Shown here piece after piece: positions 3,003 through 60,009 of a DNA stretch of 64,000 bases (the first letter of the stretch is position 1; every line of letters starts with the position of its first letter). Origin of the DNA: Escherichia phage Ge15; sequence record PP359696.1. The stretch is one strand, 5' to 3'. The notes beneath the pieces are model-generated. The model saw only the letters and a program-made list of their open reading frames with translations, was not told the DNA's origin and did no database searches. A program made the position numbers and the translations under genes.

Positions 3003-3018
3003 AAATTAAAGGAAACAT

Positions 3019-3492
3019 ATGAAAACATATCAAGAATTTATTACTGAAGCAGCTATTAATTCTCAAATTATTGCTGAATCTTTTACTGATCTTTTGAAAT
3101 TTAAAAAAGGTCAAAAAATCACTGCTGTATTGGATGATGGTACAGAAGTTGAGATGGATGTACAGGGATATAATTATGCAGTAGATGGAAAACTGTATAA
3201 TAAATCTCATGCTAAATTTGATTCATTTGACGACTTTGTTAATACAGTTGAAGATGAAAAAACTCGTAGATCCATTGCAACTGGTGATGCTAAGGTTCTT
3301 ATGGCACACGGCCATGAACGCATTCGCGCTAAGCAGAATAAAATGGGCGAAGATAATTTCGCATTAGTTGGTTATCAATCTGGTAAACAAACTTATGGTT
3401 ATCAGCGTACTGCTACCATGTATAACAAAAATGGTAAAATCGCTTTCGTGAATAGTAAAGGTTCTGTTCAGTACGTTAAATCGTTCAAATAA
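3019..3492 (+). CDS. ipIII: Internal protein III (capsid-targeted, injected protein)
   Basis: N-terminal capsid targeting sequence MKTYQEFITE; basic protein; synteny. Confidence 0.7.
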   Translation: MKTYQEFITEAAINSQIIAESFTDLLKFKKGQKITAVLDDGTEVEMDVQGYNYAVDGKLYNKSHAKFDSFDDFVNTVEDEKTRRSIATGDAKVLMAHGHERIRAKQNKMGEDNFALVGYQSGKQTYGYQRTATMYNKNGKIAFVNSKGSVQYVKSFK

Positions 3493-18125: not shown

Positions 18126-19127
18126 ATGACTCGTAACGAATATATCAAATCATTCAATAGCGTTATTGATGATAAAGCTATACCGATGTTTGGTCAAAAT
18201 ATCATTCTTTCTATTATCAATCAATGGCTCAATAGTGTTGATGCAAGTATTGTTTCTTCTGCTAAATTTATTCATGAAATTCGTAAAATTTCTAGCCGTG
18301 TAGATAAAGATGTTATCAAGAAAACTTTTAAAGAGTCTCGTCTTCTTTCATATTTGGTTAATCGGGATATTCTTGGTAATTTTGGGAAAGAAATTAAACG
18401 AACCAAAGATGTAGTAGGATATAATTGGTTCGGTGATGTTAATTCTTATCATCTTAATAATAAAGAAGACCCTGAGAATATTTTTACTCGTCGTTGGATT
18501 AGTAATTTCAGACTTTTCAAAGGACAAATTCTAAAATCAGCTTCTAAATTATGTTATGGCGATTATCGTCAAATTCATCCTTTGGCTTCTGATATGATTA
18601 TCGTAAAAGAATATGAGCTTGATGAAAATAAAGTAGCTATTTTTGTGAATTATGGATTTTTTACACCAAACGCTAACCAAAAGAATATTAATAAATTTTT
18701 CTCAATTGCTAGCACTATAACTCGTCAGTTAGAGACTGCATTACTTTGTATGGAAACAGTAGAAAATATTCATACATATCCTTTTAAGAATATATGCGGA
18801 TGGGAAGGATATAAAATTATAATTAGCCTTCGTGAAGTGAAACGTACGTACTCACCGACTGATAAAGAAATTTACCAACAAAAATGTGATGAAATTGTGA
18901 ATACTCCTAAAGAAGAAACTACCCTTGAAGAACTAATGGAATGTCTTGACGATTCGCCTGAACCGATAGAAATTCGTCCAGAAGTTATTGCACTAGAAAA
19001 AGCTTATAAAGAAGTTCTAGAAATTTCTAATAAAGCGCAGAAAGAATATGAGAAGGCTAAAAGGATTTGGGAAGAATCTGTTAATCGCCTTGATCGTTTG
19101 GAACAAGCTTTACAGTTAATTAAGTAA
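18126..19127 (+). CDS. Hypothetical protein, member of coiled-coil-tailed paralog array
   Basis: Start ATG 18126 after GAGGAG RBS and early promoter; C-terminal coiled coil ending ALQLIK. Confidence 0.5.
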   Translation: MTRNEYIKSFNSVIDDKAIPMFGQNIILSIINQWLNSVDASIVSSAKFIHEIRKISSRVDKDVIKKTFKESRLLSYLVNRDILGNFGKEIKRTKDVVGYNWFGDVNSYHLNNKEDPENIFTRRWISNFRLFKGQILKSASKLCYGDYRQIHPLASDMIIVKEYELDENKVAIFVNYGFFTPNANQKNINKFFSIASTITRQLETALLCMETVENIHTYPFKNICGWEGYKIIISLREVKRTYSPTDKEIYQQKCDEIVNTPKEETTLEELMECLDDSPEPIEIRPEVIALEKAYKEVLEISNKAQKEYEKAKRIWEESVNRLDRLEQALQLIK

Positions 19128-19179
19128 TTTAAAGCCAAGGATGGCTCGGAGTATAAATCATTAACCAAGTGAGAAGAAC

Positions 19180-44726: not shown

Positions 44727-46154
44727 GTGGTAGAAATTATTCTTTCTCATCTCATATTTGATCAAGCTTATTTTTCAAAAGTTTGGCCATATATGGATTC
44801 AGAATATTTTGAAAGTGGTCCAGCTAAAAATACATTCAAATTAATTAAATCTCATGTTAATGAGTACCATAGCGTTCCATCTATTAATGCGTTAAATGTT
44901 GCATTAGAAAATAGTTCATTTACTGAAACAGAATATTCTGGTGTAAAAACACTTATTTCAAAACTAGCCGATTCTCCGGAAGACCATAGTTGGTTAATAA
45001 AAGAAACAGAAAAATATGTTCAGCAAAGGGCGATGTTTAACGCCACATCTAAAATAATTGAAATTCAAACTAATGCTGAGCTTCCTCCGGAAAAACGAAA
45101 TAAGAAAATGCCGGATGTTGGTGCTATTCCTGACATCATGCGCCAAGCATTATCAATTTCATTTGATAGTTACGTTGGTCATGATTGGATGGATGACTAC
45201 GAAGCACGTTGGCTATCTTATATGAATAAAGCTCGTAAGGTTCCATTTAGACTCAAAATTCTAAATAAAATTACTAAAGGCGGAGCTGAAACTGGAACAC
45301 TGAACGTTTTAATGGCTGGTGTTAACGTTGGTAAGTCATTAGGATTGTGTTCATTGGCAGCAGATTATTTGCAGCTTGGTCATAACGTTCTTTATATCTC
45401 CATGGAAATGGCAGAAGAAGTCTGCGCTAAACGTATTGATGCTAATATGCTCGATGTTTCTCTTGACGATATTGATGATGGACATATTTCTTACGCCGAG
45501 TATAAAGGAAAAATGGAAAAATGGCGTGAGAAATCTACTCTCGGTCGTTTAATCGTTAAACAGTATCCTACTAGTGGAGCAGACGCTAATACATTCAGGT
45601 CTCTCTTGAATGAATTGAAGCTCAAAAAGAATTTTGTTCCAACAATCATTATTGTTGACTATCTAGGTATTTGTAAATCTTGCCGCATCAGAGTTTATTC
45701 AGAAAATAGTTACACAACTGTTAAAGCTATTGCAGAGGAATTGCGTGCTCTGGCTGTTGAAACCGAAACCGTTCTTTGGACTGCAGCACAGGTTGGTAAG
45801 CAAGCTTGGGACTCTTCTGATGTTAACATGAGCGATATTGCAGAATCTGCCGGGCTTCCAGCAACAGCCGATTTTATGCTTGCGGTCATTGAAACCGAGG
45901 AGCTAGCAGCTGCTGAACAACAACTAATTAAGCAAATCAAATCACGATATGGTGATAAGAATAAATGGAATAAGTTTTTGATGGGTGTTCAAAAAGGAAA
46001 TCAGAAATGGGTAGAAATTGAACAAGATTCTACTCCAACTGAAGTGAGTGAAGTAGCAGGTTCACAGCAGATTCAGGCTGAACAGAATCGCTATCAAAGA
46101 AACGAATCTGCTCGAGCCCAGTTAGATGCTTTGGCAAATGAATTAAAATTTTAG
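44727..46154 (+). CDS. 41: Replicative DNA helicase gp41 (DnaB family)
   Basis: 475 aa, GTG start after AAGGAG, Walker A GVNVGKS, DnaB-like motifs. Confidence 0.95.
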   Translation: MVEIILSHLIFDQAYFSKVWPYMDSEYFESGPAKNTFKLIKSHVNEYHSVPSINALNVALENSSFTETEYSGVKTLISKLADSPEDHSWLIKETEKYVQQRAMFNATSKIIEIQTNAELPPEKRNKKMPDVGAIPDIMRQALSISFDSYVGHDWMDDYEARWLSYMNKARKVPFRLKILNKITKGGAETGTLNVLMAGVNVGKSLGLCSLAADYLQLGHNVLYISMEMAEEVCAKRIDANMLDVSLDDIDDGHISYAEYKGKMEKWREKSTLGRLIVKQYPTSGADANTFRSLLNELKLKKNFVPTIIIVDYLGICKSCRIRVYSENSYTTVKAIAEELRALAVETETVLWTAAQVGKQAWDSSDVNMSDIAESAGLPATADFMLAVIETEELAAAEQQLIKQIKSRYGDKNKWNKFLMGVQKGNQKWVEIEQDSTPTEVSEVAGSQQIQAEQNRYQRNESARAQLDALANELKF

Positions 46155-46188
46155 TTTACAAGCCGACAAGACTATGGTATAGTAGTCT
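46152..46188 (+). promoter_or_regulatory. T4-type early promoter upstream of dmd-like ORF
   Basis: TAGTTTAC ... TATGGTATAGTAG; inverted repeat ACAAGACT/AGTCTTGT flanks the -10. Confidence 0.65.
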
Positions 46189-46396: not shown

Positions 46397-46654
46397 ATGC
46401 ATATTGTTTTATTTAAACCTACTCCGTATAACGTCAGGAAAAATACTCAATTCAAAGCACTTATTGCAGATACGTGGGAATTGGTGTTAGATATTCCAGC
46501 AGAAGAAAGTCCTCCATTTGGTCGAGTGGAATTTATTAAGTTTGCTGTACGTCCTACGAAGAGGCAGATTCGTCAGTATAAAAGGTATTTTCGTAAAATC
46601 GTTAAGCTAGAGAAACATTTTGTAACATGTGATTACGCAGAAGTTTTAAAATAA
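46397..46654 (+). CDS. Hypothetical protein (61.4 position)
   Basis: 85 aa from ATG 46397 after GAGGA RBS. Confidence 0.45.
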   Translation: MHIVLFKPTPYNVRKNTQFKALIADTWELVLDIPAEESPPFGRVEFIKFAVRPTKRQIRQYKRYFRKIVKLEKHFVTCDYAEVLK

Positions 46655-46692
46655 CTGTTTACTTTTGTTGGAAATTGAGATACTATATAAAC
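46655..46692 (+). promoter_or_regulatory. T4-type early promoter upstream of sp-like ORF
   Basis: CTGTTTAC ... GATACTATATAA. Confidence 0.6.
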
Positions 46693-46714
46693 ATAAACTA
46701 CTGAGGAGATTATC

Positions 46715-47008
46715 ATGAAAAAATTTATCTTTGCTACAATTTTTGCTTTAGCTTCTTGTGCTGCTCAGCCTGCTATGGCAGGTTATGATAAAGATTTGTG
46801 CGAATGGTCTATGACTGCTGATCAGACTGAGGTTGAAACTCAAATTGAAGCGGATATTATGAATATTGTTGAGCGCGATCGTCCTGAAATGAAAGCTGAA
46901 GTGCAAAAACAGCTTAAGTCTGGTGGTGTAATGCAGTATAATTATGTTCTGTATTGCGATAAAAACTTTAATAACAAAAATATCATCGCTGAAGTGGTAG
47001 GTGAATAA
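46715..47008 (+). CDS. sp: Spackle-like periplasmic protein (putative)
   Basis: 97 aa with cleavable signal peptide MKKFIFATIFALASCAAQPAMA; size/position match T4 sp (61.3); own early promoter. Confidence 0.55.
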   Translation: MKKFIFATIFALASCAAQPAMAGYDKDLCEWSMTADQTEVETQIEADIMNIVERDRPEMKAEVQKQLKSGGVMQYNYVLYCDKNFNNKNIIAEVVGE

Positions 47009-47634
47009 TGCTTTATCAAATGCACAAGTGCAAAGATACATACAAATATAAAGGTGCCCAGTGTTATATCATTAATCGTGAAAACGCGGGTCCAGGTCAT
47101 TCGCATCAATCACGGTTTGTATTCGTTAAAAACAATGAAATTATAGCAGTTGCTAATTACATGCTTGTGACTAATGATGTTAATCCGGTGCCTTTTACAT
47201 ATTATAATCTAATGGATTTGGCGTACGATTATAATTGGTTTAATCATGACACTTTGGCTCATATCGAAGGCGTAGGATTTGACATCTCTTATTCTAGTTA
47301 CTCGTTGTGTCCTATGAGCCGAGCTCATAAAGAGCCTGAATATTTTTCATTTCGTCGGCGTGTAGACTTTAAACGCAGTACAGAGTATGTCGGTGGAATA
47401 TTTGTTAAAGATAATCGAATTACTCGCATTATTTATCCTTTGGGCTGTGGTCAAAAAGATATTGATGTTGATTTAGACTTTACTGAAAACATCATTAATC
47501 ATATTGCTTCTGTGTATTTTGATATTGATCACAAAATTGTGATATGTGGATATGAATTACCATCAGAAAAACAGTCTAAAGTAAATGTTTCTATTGATGA
47601 CCAAATTTTTAATGCTTTTATGAATAAAGGTTAA
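47008..47634 (+). CDS. Hypothetical protein (61.2 position)
   Basis: 208 aa; C-terminal tail SIDDQIFNAFMNKG shared with next ORF. Confidence 0.5.
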   Translation: MLYQMHKCKDTYKYKGAQCYIINRENAGPGHSHQSRFVFVKNNEIIAVANYMLVTNDVNPVPFTYYNLMDLAYDYNWFNHDTLAHIEGVGFDISYSSYSLCPMSRAHKEPEYFSFRRRVDFKRSTEYVGGIFVKDNRITRIIYPLGCGQKDIDVDLDFTENIINHIASVYFDIDHKIVICGYELPSEKQSKVNVSIDDQIFNAFMNKG

Positions 47635-47635
47635 T

Positions 47636-47992
47636 ATGTATAGTTCTGAATTTTCATATTTAAAAATGGAAAAAATTTCATACGATTTTATAGATGAAAA
47701 GGTTTATTACAGTTTCCATGAACCACGTTTTAATAGTGAGGTTGGGTTTATTGTAGTAAAAGACAATTTCATTTTAAAGATATATTCAGCATTAAAGGAT
47801 TTTCACTACGAAAATATTAACCTAAAATTTGATAAAGAAAACGTTCGTAATTGTGCAGTAACAATTACAGGAAATAAAGGCACATGTGTTATGCTATCTG
47901 ATGAAATTAATGATTTGCTAAATGATGCCGAAAAGGTTGCTATTCCATCTATTGATGACCAAATTTTTAATGCTTTTATGAATAGAGGTTAA
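47636..47992 (+). CDS. Hypothetical protein (61.1 position)
   Basis: 118 aa; C-terminal tail SIDDQIFNAFMNRG duplicated from upstream ORF. Confidence 0.5.
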   Translation: MYSSEFSYLKMEKISYDFIDEKVYYSFHEPRFNSEVGFIVVKDNFILKIYSALKDFHYENINLKFDKENVRNCAVTITGNKGTCVMLSDEINDLLNDAEKVAIPSIDDQIFNAFMNRG

Positions 47993-47993
47993 T

Positions 47994-48158
47994 ATGAAAA
48001 CATATAAAGAATTTATTAAAGAAGATATGGTAGCTGGAGATTCAGGTGGTAATCCTGAAAATATCTCTACTGGAACAACGTCAGGTGCTGTAGTAAATAA
48101 AGGTCCTGAACAGATTCCTAAAAAGAAAAAAGAGGAATCTAAAGAAAAAGAAGAGTAA
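47994..48158 (+). CDS. Small capsid-targeting-sequence (CTS) protein, candidate internal protein
   Basis: 54-aa ORF not in track; N-terminus MKTYKEFIKE matches ipII/ipIII CTS; Lys/Glu-rich C-terminus. Confidence 0.4.
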   Translation: MKTYKEFIKEDMVAGDSGGNPENISTGTTSGAVVNKGPEQIPKKKKEESKEKEE

Positions 48159-48160
48159 AA

Positions 48161-49189
48161 ATGTCATCAATACCTTGGATTGATAATGAGTTTGCATACC
48201 GTGCATTGGCTCATTTACCTAAATTCGCACAAGTAAATAATAGTTCAACTTTTAAATTACGGTTTAGATGCCCTGTTTGTGGAGATTCAAAAACCGACCA
48301 AAATAAAGCCCGTGGATGGTATTATGGTGATAATAATGAAGGAAATATTCATTGTTATAACTGTAACTATCATGCACCAATCGGAATATATTTAAAGGAG
48401 TTTGAACCTGATTTATATCGTGAGTATATCTTTGAAATAAGAAAAGAAAAAGGTAAAAGTCGTCCAGTAGAAAAACCTAAAGAACTTCCTAAACAACCCG
48501 AGAAGAAAATAATTAAATCTCTTCCGTCATGTGTTAGATTAGATAAACTGACGGAAGACCATCCAATTATAAAATACATAAAAGCTCGCTGTATTCCAAA
48601 GGATAAATGGAAATATCTTTGGTTTACAACTGAATGGCCTAAATTAGTTAATAGCATAGCGCCGGGAACATATAAAAAGGAAATACCTGAGCCTCGTCTT
48701 GTTATTCCAATTTATAATGCTAATGGAAAAGCTGAGTCGTTTCAAGGACGTGCATTAAAGAAAGATGCTCCTCAAAAATATATCACCATCAAAGCTTATC
48801 CTGAAGCAACAAAAATCTATGGAGTCGAACGGGTTAAAGATGGTGATGTATATGTTCTAGAAGGACCTATAGATTCACTTTTTATTGAAAATGGTATAGC
48901 TATTACGGGTGGTCAATTAGACCTAGAAGTTGTTCCATTTAAAGATAGACGCGTGTGGGTTTTAGATAATGAACCTCGTCACCCTGACACTATTAAGCGA
49001 ATGACTAAATTAGTTGATGCAGGAGAAAGGGTTATGTTTTGGGACAAATCTCCCTGGAAATCAAAAGATGTTAATGATATGATTAGAAAGGAAGGTGCAA
49101 CCCCTGAACAAATTATGGAATATATGAAAAATAATATTGCGCAGGGGTTGATGGCTAAAATGCGGCTATCTAAATATGCTAAGATTTAA
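48161..49189 (+). CDS. 61: DNA primase gp61
   Basis: 342 aa; N-terminal zinc ribbon CPVCGDS...CYNCNYH, Toprim-like C-terminal region. Confidence 0.93.
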   Translation: MSSIPWIDNEFAYRALAHLPKFAQVNNSSTFKLRFRCPVCGDSKTDQNKARGWYYGDNNEGNIHCYNCNYHAPIGIYLKEFEPDLYREYIFEIRKEKGKSRPVEKPKELPKQPEKKIIKSLPSCVRLDKLTEDHPIIKYIKARCIPKDKWKYLWFTTEWPKLVNSIAPGTYKKEIPEPRLVIPIYNANGKAESFQGRALKKDAPQKYITIKAYPEATKIYGVERVKDGDVYVLEGPIDSLFIENGIAITGGQLDLEVVPFKDRRVWVLDNEPRHPDTIKRMTKLVDAGERVMFWDKSPWKSKDVNDMIRKEGATPEQIMEYMKNNIAQGLMAKMRLSKYAKI

Positions 49190-59106: not shown

Positions 59107-59580
59107 ATGATTACTATCGGTGAAATTAAGCGTGTATCGTCTGCATCTCGTTCTAAAGCTGCAGGTCGTCTAGTTGAAGTGGTAGGACTTCGTACTAATG
59201 GTACTGGTCGTGTTATAGAAGTTAAAGTTCGAATCATTCCTAGTTCTGGAAAAACTGAAACTCAGTACGCTTACGTAAGTCCTAAATTTCTGGAAACTCG
59301 TGTTAGCTCTCATTTTGCTTCTGTTGAAGAAGTTGAATCCACTGAGTCTAATGCACAATTTAAATGGGCGTTGTGTAAAGGCGTTGAATTTGTAACTGAT
59401 GAAGAATTCGATTATATTGATGATTTCGCTGGTCCAAGTAAAACTGATAGGATGTGTGGCTTCATCACAGACCAATGGGTTGAAGATGGTGAAAAGCTCT
59501 ACAATATCGTATTCTTAGGTGACTTCCGGGTTGTTGAAGAATCTGAAATCACTCGTTATGCTTCTCCTCGTAAAGCTTAA
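59107..59580 (+). CDS. MotB-family-like protein (paralog 2)
   Basis: 157 aa; N-terminal VSSASRSKAAGRLVEVVG and C-terminal GFITDQWVEDGEKLYNIVFLGDFRVV. Confidence 0.45.
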   Translation: MITIGEIKRVSSASRSKAAGRLVEVVGLRTNGTGRVIEVKVRIIPSSGKTETQYAYVSPKFLETRVSSHFASVEEVESTESNAQFKWALCKGVEFVTDEEFDYIDDFAGPSKTDRMCGFITDQWVEDGEKLYNIVFLGDFRVVEESEITRYASPRKA

Positions 59581-59589
59581 GGAATTATT

Positions 59590-60009
59590 ATGAATATTGT
59601 AAATCTCTCTACTGGTGATTACGTATATGTATCCGTTGCTTCTCGTTCTAAAGTTGCAGGAAAGCTGGTTGAAGTTCTTTCTGTAAGTGATCCAGTTTTT
59701 GGTCGTAACGAGGTTAAAGTTCGTGACGCTGATGGTAACATTGGTTATGTCTCAAGTCAGTTCATTGAGCCAGAAGAAAGCGCATTTAAATGGAAACTTT
59801 GTTCTTCAGTTTTAGTTGTAAAAGACCATAAATTCACAATTGCGGCGGCAACAGATGGAACTCCATGGACAACGAATCAAGTCGCTGGTTTTATTTCGGA
59901 CCGTTGGGTAGAAGATGGTGTCAAGCTCTACAATATTGTTTTTGCAGGCCAGTTCATGGTAGTTCCTGAATTCCAAATTAAAAAATGGTGCGAAGCAGCT
60001 TTAGCATAA
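59590..60009 (+). CDS. MotB-family-like protein (paralog 3)
   Basis: 139 aa; VSVASRSKVAGKLVEVL and GFISDRWVEDGVKLYNIVFAGQFMVV. Confidence 0.45.
   Translation: MNIVNLSTGDYVYVSVASRSKVAGKLVEVLSVSDPVFGRNEVKVRDADGNIGYVSSQFIEPEESAFKWKLCSSVLVVKDHKFTIAAATDGTPWTTNQVAGFISDRWVEDGVKLYNIVFAGQFMVVPEFQIKKWCEAALA

Follow-up and report, generated by a model that had tools for sequence, protein, structure and literature searches.

Near-identical tails of two AdfA-family genes bracket a variable 118-aa gene and carry the middle promoter P61 in a T4-like phage

Two near-identical 49-nt direct repeats bracket a 118-aa gene (ORF118) in the genome of Escherichia phage Ge15 (PP359696.1; the window referred to below is the whole 64,000-nt stretch analysed). 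These repeats are the tails of two anciently diverged AdfA-family genes, probably kept alike by exchange, and recombination between the tails probably drives the loss and gain of the 118-aa gene. The anatomy of the locus, the homology of the two genes, a polymorphism bounded exactly by the repeats, the identity of P61 by position and the sharing of variants from copy to copy were observed directly. The presence of P61 in the repeat and the assignment of both genes to the AdfA anti-DarT family go beyond the earlier sequence-only reading of this DNA.

The window belongs to Tequatrovirus (T4-like), with phage PinkRuby as the top match in this region (99.2%). The locus lies on the plus strand and follows the T4 gene order (41, dmd, 61.4, sp, 61.2, the extra 118-aa ORF, 61.1 and 61), with the following genes:

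44727-46154, plus strand: gene 41, from comparison with T4.
46715-47008, plus strand: sp (spackle), the left border of the variable slot.
47008-47634, plus strand: adfA (T4 gene 61.2), 208 aa, anti-DarT factor A, from Pfam PF23813 (E 1.7e-136), an AF2 model and published work (PMC11257639).
47636-47992, plus strand: 118-aa single-domain AdfA-family paralogue (RB32ORF033c type), the variable cassette, from Pfam, BLASTP and dN/dS.
47994-48158, plus strand: gene 61.1, 54 aa, from comparison with T4.
48161-49189, plus strand: gene 61 (DNA primase), whose middle promoter is P61, from comparison with T4.

The 118-aa ORF is an additional gene between 61.2 and 61.1 that T4 does not have, and its annotation in RB32 and RB14 is RB32ORF033c, 'similar to gp61.2'. 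The sequence-only reading had labelled this bracketed ORF (47636-47992) as the gene in the 61.1 position, which was wrong, as 61.1 is the next gene. Mobility by a homing endonuclease or a transposon was considered and rejected, no such gene being present within or adjoining the cassette.

A repeat search gave two direct copies of 49 nt (47590-47638 and 47948-47996) that were identical at 48 of 49 positions, with a start-to-start spacing of 358 and a single A/G mismatch at repeat position 38. The near-identical direct repeats, differing at one base, that had been noticed from the sequence alone were therefore real, and the coordinates given for the pair stood except for the length (48 instead of 49 nt) and the start of copy 2 (47949 instead of 47948). 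This pair was the sole repeat of at least 30 nt with more than 95% identity in the window, the next best being a 32-nt early-promoter family (94%), and a degenerate back-translation of DDQIFNAFM found two sites in the 64-kb window, which were the two repeat copies, and none in 100 shuffles. The features of the repeat are:

47590-47638, plus strand: repeat copy 1, the last 14 codons of adfA (61.2) with a K-type tail, and the TAA-T-ATG of the 118-aa gene.
47948-47996, plus strand: repeat copy 2, the last 14 codons of the 118-aa gene with an R-type tail, and the TAA-T-ATG of 61.1; orthologue of the T4 P61 region.
47924-47947, plus strand: hypervariable patch directly upstream of copy 2, at the linker preceding the tail helix, from the alignment of relatives.

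Both copies code for SIDDQIFNAFMN(K/R)G and then read TAA-T-ATG, the ATG being the start of the gene downstream, and the earlier description of each copy as a C-terminal tail ending in (K/R)G plus a stop/start junction was borne out by the sequence and its ORFs. Three parts overlap in each copy, namely the family C-terminal peptide (S-I-DDQIFNAFMN-K/R-G), the TAATATG stop/start junction and a MotA-type middle promoter. Within each copy, GAGGTTAATATG forms the stop/Shine-Dalgarno/start junction serving the next gene.

The promoter was read against the middle promoter consensus, in which a MotA box (wwwTGCTTtA) centred at -30 is followed by a -10 element 12 ± 1 bp downstream (PMC2988021), and against the P61 start site of T4, given as 19122 (PMC2988021 Table 1); the listing in Hinton 2010 (PMC2988021) attributes P61 to Marshall, Sharma and Hinton 1999. 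Gene 61.1 spans 18966-19130 in the T4 record, where base 19122, on the transcribed strand, is the final A of ATGAAAACA. This start lies exactly 7 nt past TAATAT; TGCTT occupies -31 to -27, the spacer is 12 bp, and the promoter elements are inside the repeat. The corresponding elements in the window are:

47610-47619, plus strand: MotA-box-like 10-mer TAATGCTTTT of copy 1, from sequence reading against the consensus (PMC2988021).
47632-47637, plus strand: -10 element TAATAT of copy 1, 12 nt past the MotA box, overlapping the adfA stop and the ATG of the 118-aa gene.
47968-47977, plus strand: MotA box of the P61 orthologue in copy 2, matching T4 P61 (PMC2988021).
47990-47995, plus strand: -10 element TAATAT of the P61 orthologue in copy 2, the hexamer being identical in T4.

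Copy 2 matches T4 around 19122 without a difference (MotA box TAATGCTTTT, 12-bp spacer and -10 TAATAT), and is by position the orthologue of the mapped, MotA-dependent P61 of T4, which serves primase gene 61. In both copies the MotA box scores 9/10 to the consensus and TAATAT follows 12 bp after it, fitting the sigma-70 -10 rule TAnnnT, and the difference between the two promoter sequences is confined to the spacer. The published start site confirms the MotA promoter reading for T4-type sequences, despite changes to the MotA-box core in other genera (GCC in VR25, GCA in RB69-like phages). Transcription from copy 2 is predicted to start at 48002, the ninth base of 61.1, and copy 1, if active, is predicted by analogy with T4 P61 to start near 47642-47644, just within the 118-aa gene. 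A sigma-70 promoter scan returned no promoter-like match in either repeat copy, and the number of terminator-like sites in 46600-48400 was zero.

AdfA is gp61.2 of T4, and RB69 AdfA R164H binds DarT1 and neutralises DarTG1 defence (PMC11257639). The 61.2 product of the window matched the AdfA profile PF23813 over its full length (452.8 bits), whereas the 118-aa ORF matched profile positions 113-211 only (34.1 bits, cut-off 27) and aligned by BLASTP with AdfA residues 109-208, the C-terminal half, at 34% identity (E 4e-8). The two proteins belong to separate PHROGs (3781 and 4122) with cross-hits. The AdfA family is tiny, with 10 clusters recovered when 1.84 billion representative proteins were searched by profile, three of which contained further single-domain proteins (119-125 aa) with bodies less than 50% identical and tails reading DDQIFNAFM(N/K)RG. 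The C-terminal motif DDQIFNAFM(N/K)(K/R)(G/D) was invariant in all aligned members as well as in the distant single-domain proteins P0024, P0026 and P0029, and in an hhalign comparison the 145-aa protein of VR25 (Gaprivervirus) matched the AdfA alignment over the 16-residue tail only. AlphaFold models of moderate confidence (pLDDT 78 and 74) gave two beta-sheet/helix domains for AdfA and one for the 118-aa protein, the shared tail being modelled in both as a short C-terminal helix at low confidence. A PDB sequence search with both proteins gave nothing useful, and none of the solved structures or fold matches was informative for either.

The 118-aa gene is under purifying selection (dN/dS 0.21-0.33, compared to 0.05-0.08 for the primase), and the dS between ORF118 alleles reached 0.5. 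ORF118 orthologues with 45-47% identity were found in Gaprivervirus and relatives, which makes the paralogues older than the genus split. The sequence-only reading had offered a recent tandem duplication of a gene 3' end as an alternative, here the 3' part of 61.2, which would fit the alignment of the 118-aa protein to the C-terminal half of AdfA and the tail common to both. It is highly improbable and is refuted by the divergent gene bodies, which are 34% identical in protein with no DNA similarity detectable beyond the 49-mer, and by the orthologues in another genus and the dS within ORF118. The 118-aa gene is instead an old paralogue, with a single domain that corresponds to AdfA's C-terminal half, and only its tail stayed near-identical.

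At specificity site 164 the AdfA of the window has His (NIINHIAS), as does the neutralising AdfA, and the 118-aa protein has Cys (NVRNCAVT). The bracketed protein also differs from AdfA in having one domain instead of two. When RB69 x T2 crosses were selected for DarTG1 resistance, gene 30.3 was recovered and not the 118-aa gene of T2 (PMC11257639), which argues against an anti-DarT1 role of the 118-aa protein. It may have an anti-defence function, and a role against another DarT or another toxin would be a reasonable guess; this AdfA paralogue of about 300 sequenced phages is a candidate inhibitor of another toxin.

The distribution of the two genes was surveyed in GenBank phage records, on which the analysis relied because IMG/VR gave only 7 related loci. 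The adfA-ORF118 junction, used as a query, had matches in 481 phage records, and 157 of them covered both junction sides (adfA and ORF118 in tandem). An evenly spaced sample of 60 rows contained 20 with both genes, 22 with adfA only, 17 with ORF118 only and 1 from another genus, giving estimated shares among the approximately 480 relatives of roughly a third, ~37% and ~28% for the first three classes, respectively. The adfA-only rows, for example T4 and T6, matched only up to the repeat end, and the ORF118-only rows, for example T2, RB14 and PP01, matched only from the repeat onward; the ORF118 body was present in 298 records. Alignment of T4 with the window, T2 and Sf21 showed an exact repeat-to-repeat absence, with one 49-mer left and 61.2 joined directly to 61.1. 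The comparison of relatives that had been proposed as a check thus found the bracketed gene to vary, and the suggestion that it is a gain/loss cassette was supported, the boundaries of its absence falling exactly at the repeats in T4, T6 and ~37% of relatives.

A second, independent tail-to-tail indel was found in other genera. VR25 carries sp, a 145-aa gene, a 119-aa orthologue and a 61.4-like gene, both of the middle genes ending in the tail, and its counterpart in Dhakavirus IME341 consists of sp, a 146-aa gene and the 61.4-like gene, with the tail joined to the next gene.

In T2-type genomes without adfA, the sp stop is followed by T and TAGAGGTTA(A/G)TATG and then by ORF118, TAGAGGTTA(A/G)TATG being a 14-nt remnant of an R-type copy. 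The loss of adfA in these genomes looks like a separate microhomology deletion. T2 has been described as lacking adfA (PMC11257639), and a deletion of adfA with ORF118 kept reconciles this description with the possession of a paralogue by T2.

The remnant is located at 1880-2040 of the T2 locus (L002) and also occurs in L021, L022, L023, L011 and L012. In T2 itself, an additional A close to the end of sp shortens the annotated sp to 92 aa. T4_ev151 was considered as an evolved T4 and rejected, as it is simply an ORF118-only phage. Among adfA-only phages, G28 (L019, ~2858) has an extra C in GACCCAAATT that shifts the frame, and HMD-9 (L017, ~2842) has lost 15 nt in frame between TCTA repeats immediately ahead of the tail; adfA is damaged beside the tail in both.

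By flank haplotype, the adfA-only genomes formed two or more groups, and each group was closer to some tandem genomes than to the other adfA-only genomes. The flanks of IMG5, IMG6 and HMD-9 were closer to those of three tandem genomes (the window, APTC-EC-2A and CP) than to those of T4, T6 and IMG7, which were themselves closest to the tandem ESh36. As the adfA-only genomes are not one clade, the indel arose more than once or moved between backgrounds. No near-identical genome pair differing by the indel alone was present among 26 loci, and a recent event was not caught, the closest pairs being 2-3% apart in their flanks.

The usual tails have K in copy 1 and R in copy 2, and the exact K-type 29-mer occurred in 110 records, compared to 456 for the R-type. 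K/K copies were present in PinkRuby and vB_Eco_CP, R/R copies in APTC-EC-2A and ESh36, and a K tail on the ORF118 of Manna, an ORF118-only phage, and a synonymous GAC-GAT variant was found in copy 1 in teqhal, Jbel and AR1 and in copy 2 in Sf21. A 59-nt tandem duplication in vB_Eco_CP (L027, 1421-1540), which could be an assembly error, gave a third tail/promoter copy. In Yersinia phage phiD1 (L031, 1900-2860) the tail occurs four times and ORF118 twice, the two ORF118 genes being separated by an incomplete ORF118 and many Ns. One hybrid ORF118-tail-ORF118 junction in phiD1 would be the reciprocal product expected from unequal exchange, to be treated with caution because this stretch contains Ns. 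In the adfA-only genomes, no K tail was found next to 61.1, and all seven examined carried the copy-2 type, which a crossover within the 37 nt left of the SNP would yield. The K/R flips among copies could be recurrent transitions at one site. Taken together, the K/K and R/R genomes, the shared polymorphisms, the three-copy genome and the second tail-to-tail indel point to recombination between copies.

The degree of codon agreement between the two tails was compared with that expected from independent evolution. Given the codon usage of the window, two independent draws would agree at all 12 degenerate codons of the shared peptide with a probability of 4e-4, or ~3e-3 without the four MotA-box codons (hand calculation), and between genera the conserved residues of sp, 61.1 and 61 kept the same codon in only 38-52% of cases. 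Tails in other genera differed from the window tail at 3-7 of 49 positions, while the paralogous tails within Tequatrovirus genomes showed only 0-3 differences. In VR25, both tails share the genus-specific GAC, GCC, CGA and Lys, which are absent from both Tequatrovirus tails. Tails alike within a genus and different between genera fit the pattern of concerted evolution. Tail codons were the same across genera in 10/13 and 6/10 cases (hand count), not clearly above the background of 0.38-0.52, and no claim of nucleotide-level selection across genera is therefore made.

Constraint could in principle keep the tails alike without any exchange, the peptide, the MotA promoter and the coupled stop/start each being maintained while old alleles spread by flank recombination and the repeats never acted as a crossover substrate. 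Consistent with this, the tail peptide is invariant across the whole AdfA family, P61 lies within the repeat, no recent deletion pair was seen among the 26 loci, and tail variation among relatives is confined to positions outside the MotA box and the -10 element; the peptide and promoter constraints explain part of the nucleotide identity. However, the codon agreement is too good for constraint alone, even when the MotA-box codons are removed, and other genera encode the same peptide with their 3-7 differences, GCC and GCA in the MotA box included. In two separate genus pairs, moreover, the boundary of the indel coincides exactly with the repeat, and K/K, R/R, three-copy and hybrid-junction variants exist. 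Constraint as the sole cause is accordingly quite unlikely, and recombination between the copies, rather than selection alone, is the likely cause.

The direction of the change is a separate matter. In Sf21, a divergent segment comprising sp, adfA and ORF118 (84-88% identical to the window) ended at copy 2, and 61.1 and 61 were back to 98%, making the tail a mosaic boundary as well. This boundary and the lack of a K tail in any adfA-only genome also agree with a gain, in which the T4-type arrangement is ancestral and the 118-aa gene entered from another phage by unequal recombination with the tail as the sole homology, its own tail being overwritten at that time. Such a history, which has the same mechanism as the best explanation and differs from it only in direction, is rather unlikely, since a two-gene tandem that includes an ORF118 orthologue is already present in Gaprivervirus VR25 and T2-type genomes keep the 14-nt remnant of a copy upstream of ORF118. 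Because both the outgroup tandem and this remnant suggest an old tandem, an old tandem with later losses is tentatively favoured.

Recombination between the tails, the preferred mechanism, would proceed as follows. Because the tails are near-identical in DNA, direct and 358 nt apart, homologous recombination between them would remove a 358-nt unit with the 118-aa gene seamlessly. As in T4, the deletion product would have a single P61 and an undisturbed start of 61.1, and its adfA would be intact with a chimeric end. The 118-aa gene could return by unequal (reverse) exchange or, in mixed infections, by ordinary recombination in the flanks, and gene conversion between copies would homogenise the tails, so that the locus would be a small array of anti-defence-family genes able to expand and contract. 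Singer and colleagues (Cell 1982) reportedly found T4 recombination to be efficient from about 50 bp of homology; if so, the 49-bp repeat is close to the threshold. The mechanism is ordinary, namely non-allelic recombination between paralogue tails, and the instance is new and tied to an anti-defence family. It would account for the differences between T4, T2 and RB32-type phages at the locus, for the seamless deletions found there, and for T2 seeming to be without adfA yet keeping a paralogue.

The nearest described system is that of the PeSLs (PMC2839356; Comeau et al. 2014, PMC4122927), which are involved in modular shuffling in T4-type phages. In both cases a short promoter-bearing repeat lies on either side of a non-essential ORF, in a part of the T4-like genome that varies, and recombination of nearby copies, which would be the case here, deletes or swaps the ORF and accounts for differences between close relatives. 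As with PeSLs, repeat copies flank the variable ORF and the indels of close relatives end in the repeats. The PeSL consists of a strong sigma-70-like early promoter and a stem-loop terminator, whereas the present repeat has a MotA-dependent middle promoter and no terminator-like site. Unlike the PeSL, it lies in coding sequence and encodes a conserved C-terminal peptide, and exchange would be in frame and give a chimeric gene end. Mini-circles are a feature of the PeSL system. The P61 promoter sequence occurs once in T4 and twice in the present phage, the upstream copy being predicted to start inside the 118-aa gene. With respect to the published AdfA (PMC11257639), the left gene is AdfA itself, and the bracketed gene matches the C-terminal domain that holds residue 164, with the tail in common.

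The locus also resembles viral 'gene accordions', such as the amplification of T4 tifA (PMC9391042). As outlined for tifA and for non-allelic recombination in tandem families, the copy number of a counter-defence gene changes through short direct repeats and the repeated part is homogenised. In the present locus, only the 49-nt tail is homogenised and the gene bodies are very divergent, and the pattern was seen in sequence rather than in an experimental selection as for tifA.

The locus illustrates, in a form open to testing, how T-even phages come to differ in their counter-defence genes, AdfA-family members sharing one slot whose joining DNA codes simultaneously for an invariant peptide and the primase middle promoter. 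More tentatively, it is possible that the 49-mer is a dedicated, dual-coded exchange joint for in-frame swaps of AdfA-family genes that leave primase expression undisturbed, and that the 118-aa protein has a new anti-toxin specificity. If so, T-even phages would swap, stack or drop AdfA-family cassettes through a coding-sequence, middle-promoter counterpart of the PeSLs, and the specificity of the 118-aa protein would be toward another DarT variant or another defence.

Several further features were recorded at and around the locus. The peptide of the 24-nt patch at 47924-47947 reads AEKVAIP, AENITAP or MEDITVP among relatives, and the patch has at least three very different alleles, present in tandem as well as ORF118-only genomes, although ORF118 genes are otherwise 97-99% identical. 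In vB_Eco_CP, the triplication includes a tiny ORF (MCCTFY) between ORF118 and 61.1. The 54-aa gp61.1 (window 47994-48155) matches the C-terminal 46 residues of the 156-aa PHROG family phrog_2086, and Mosigvirus SQ17 (L018, 3124-3591) has a 155-aa gene at the 61.1 position.

Elsewhere in the window, a shared gene 5' end, ATGAAAAC(A/G)TAT(A/C)AAGAATTTAT, encoding the peptide MKTY(K/Q)EFI, occurs at 2672-2719, 3006-3053 and 47981-48028, the third being that of 61.1; the first two are 334 nt apart and may belong to another small tandem paralogue pair. A 93-nt direct repeat (59457-59549 and 59886-59978; 71% identity, 429 nt apart) probably marks another tandem paralogous gene pair. Motifs of the form GTTTAC...TGGTA(C/T)TATA, present at 46152-46183 and in the repeat families D1, D2 and D5, resemble T4 early promoters, and the one just after gene 41 would drive early transcription from dmd through gene 61.
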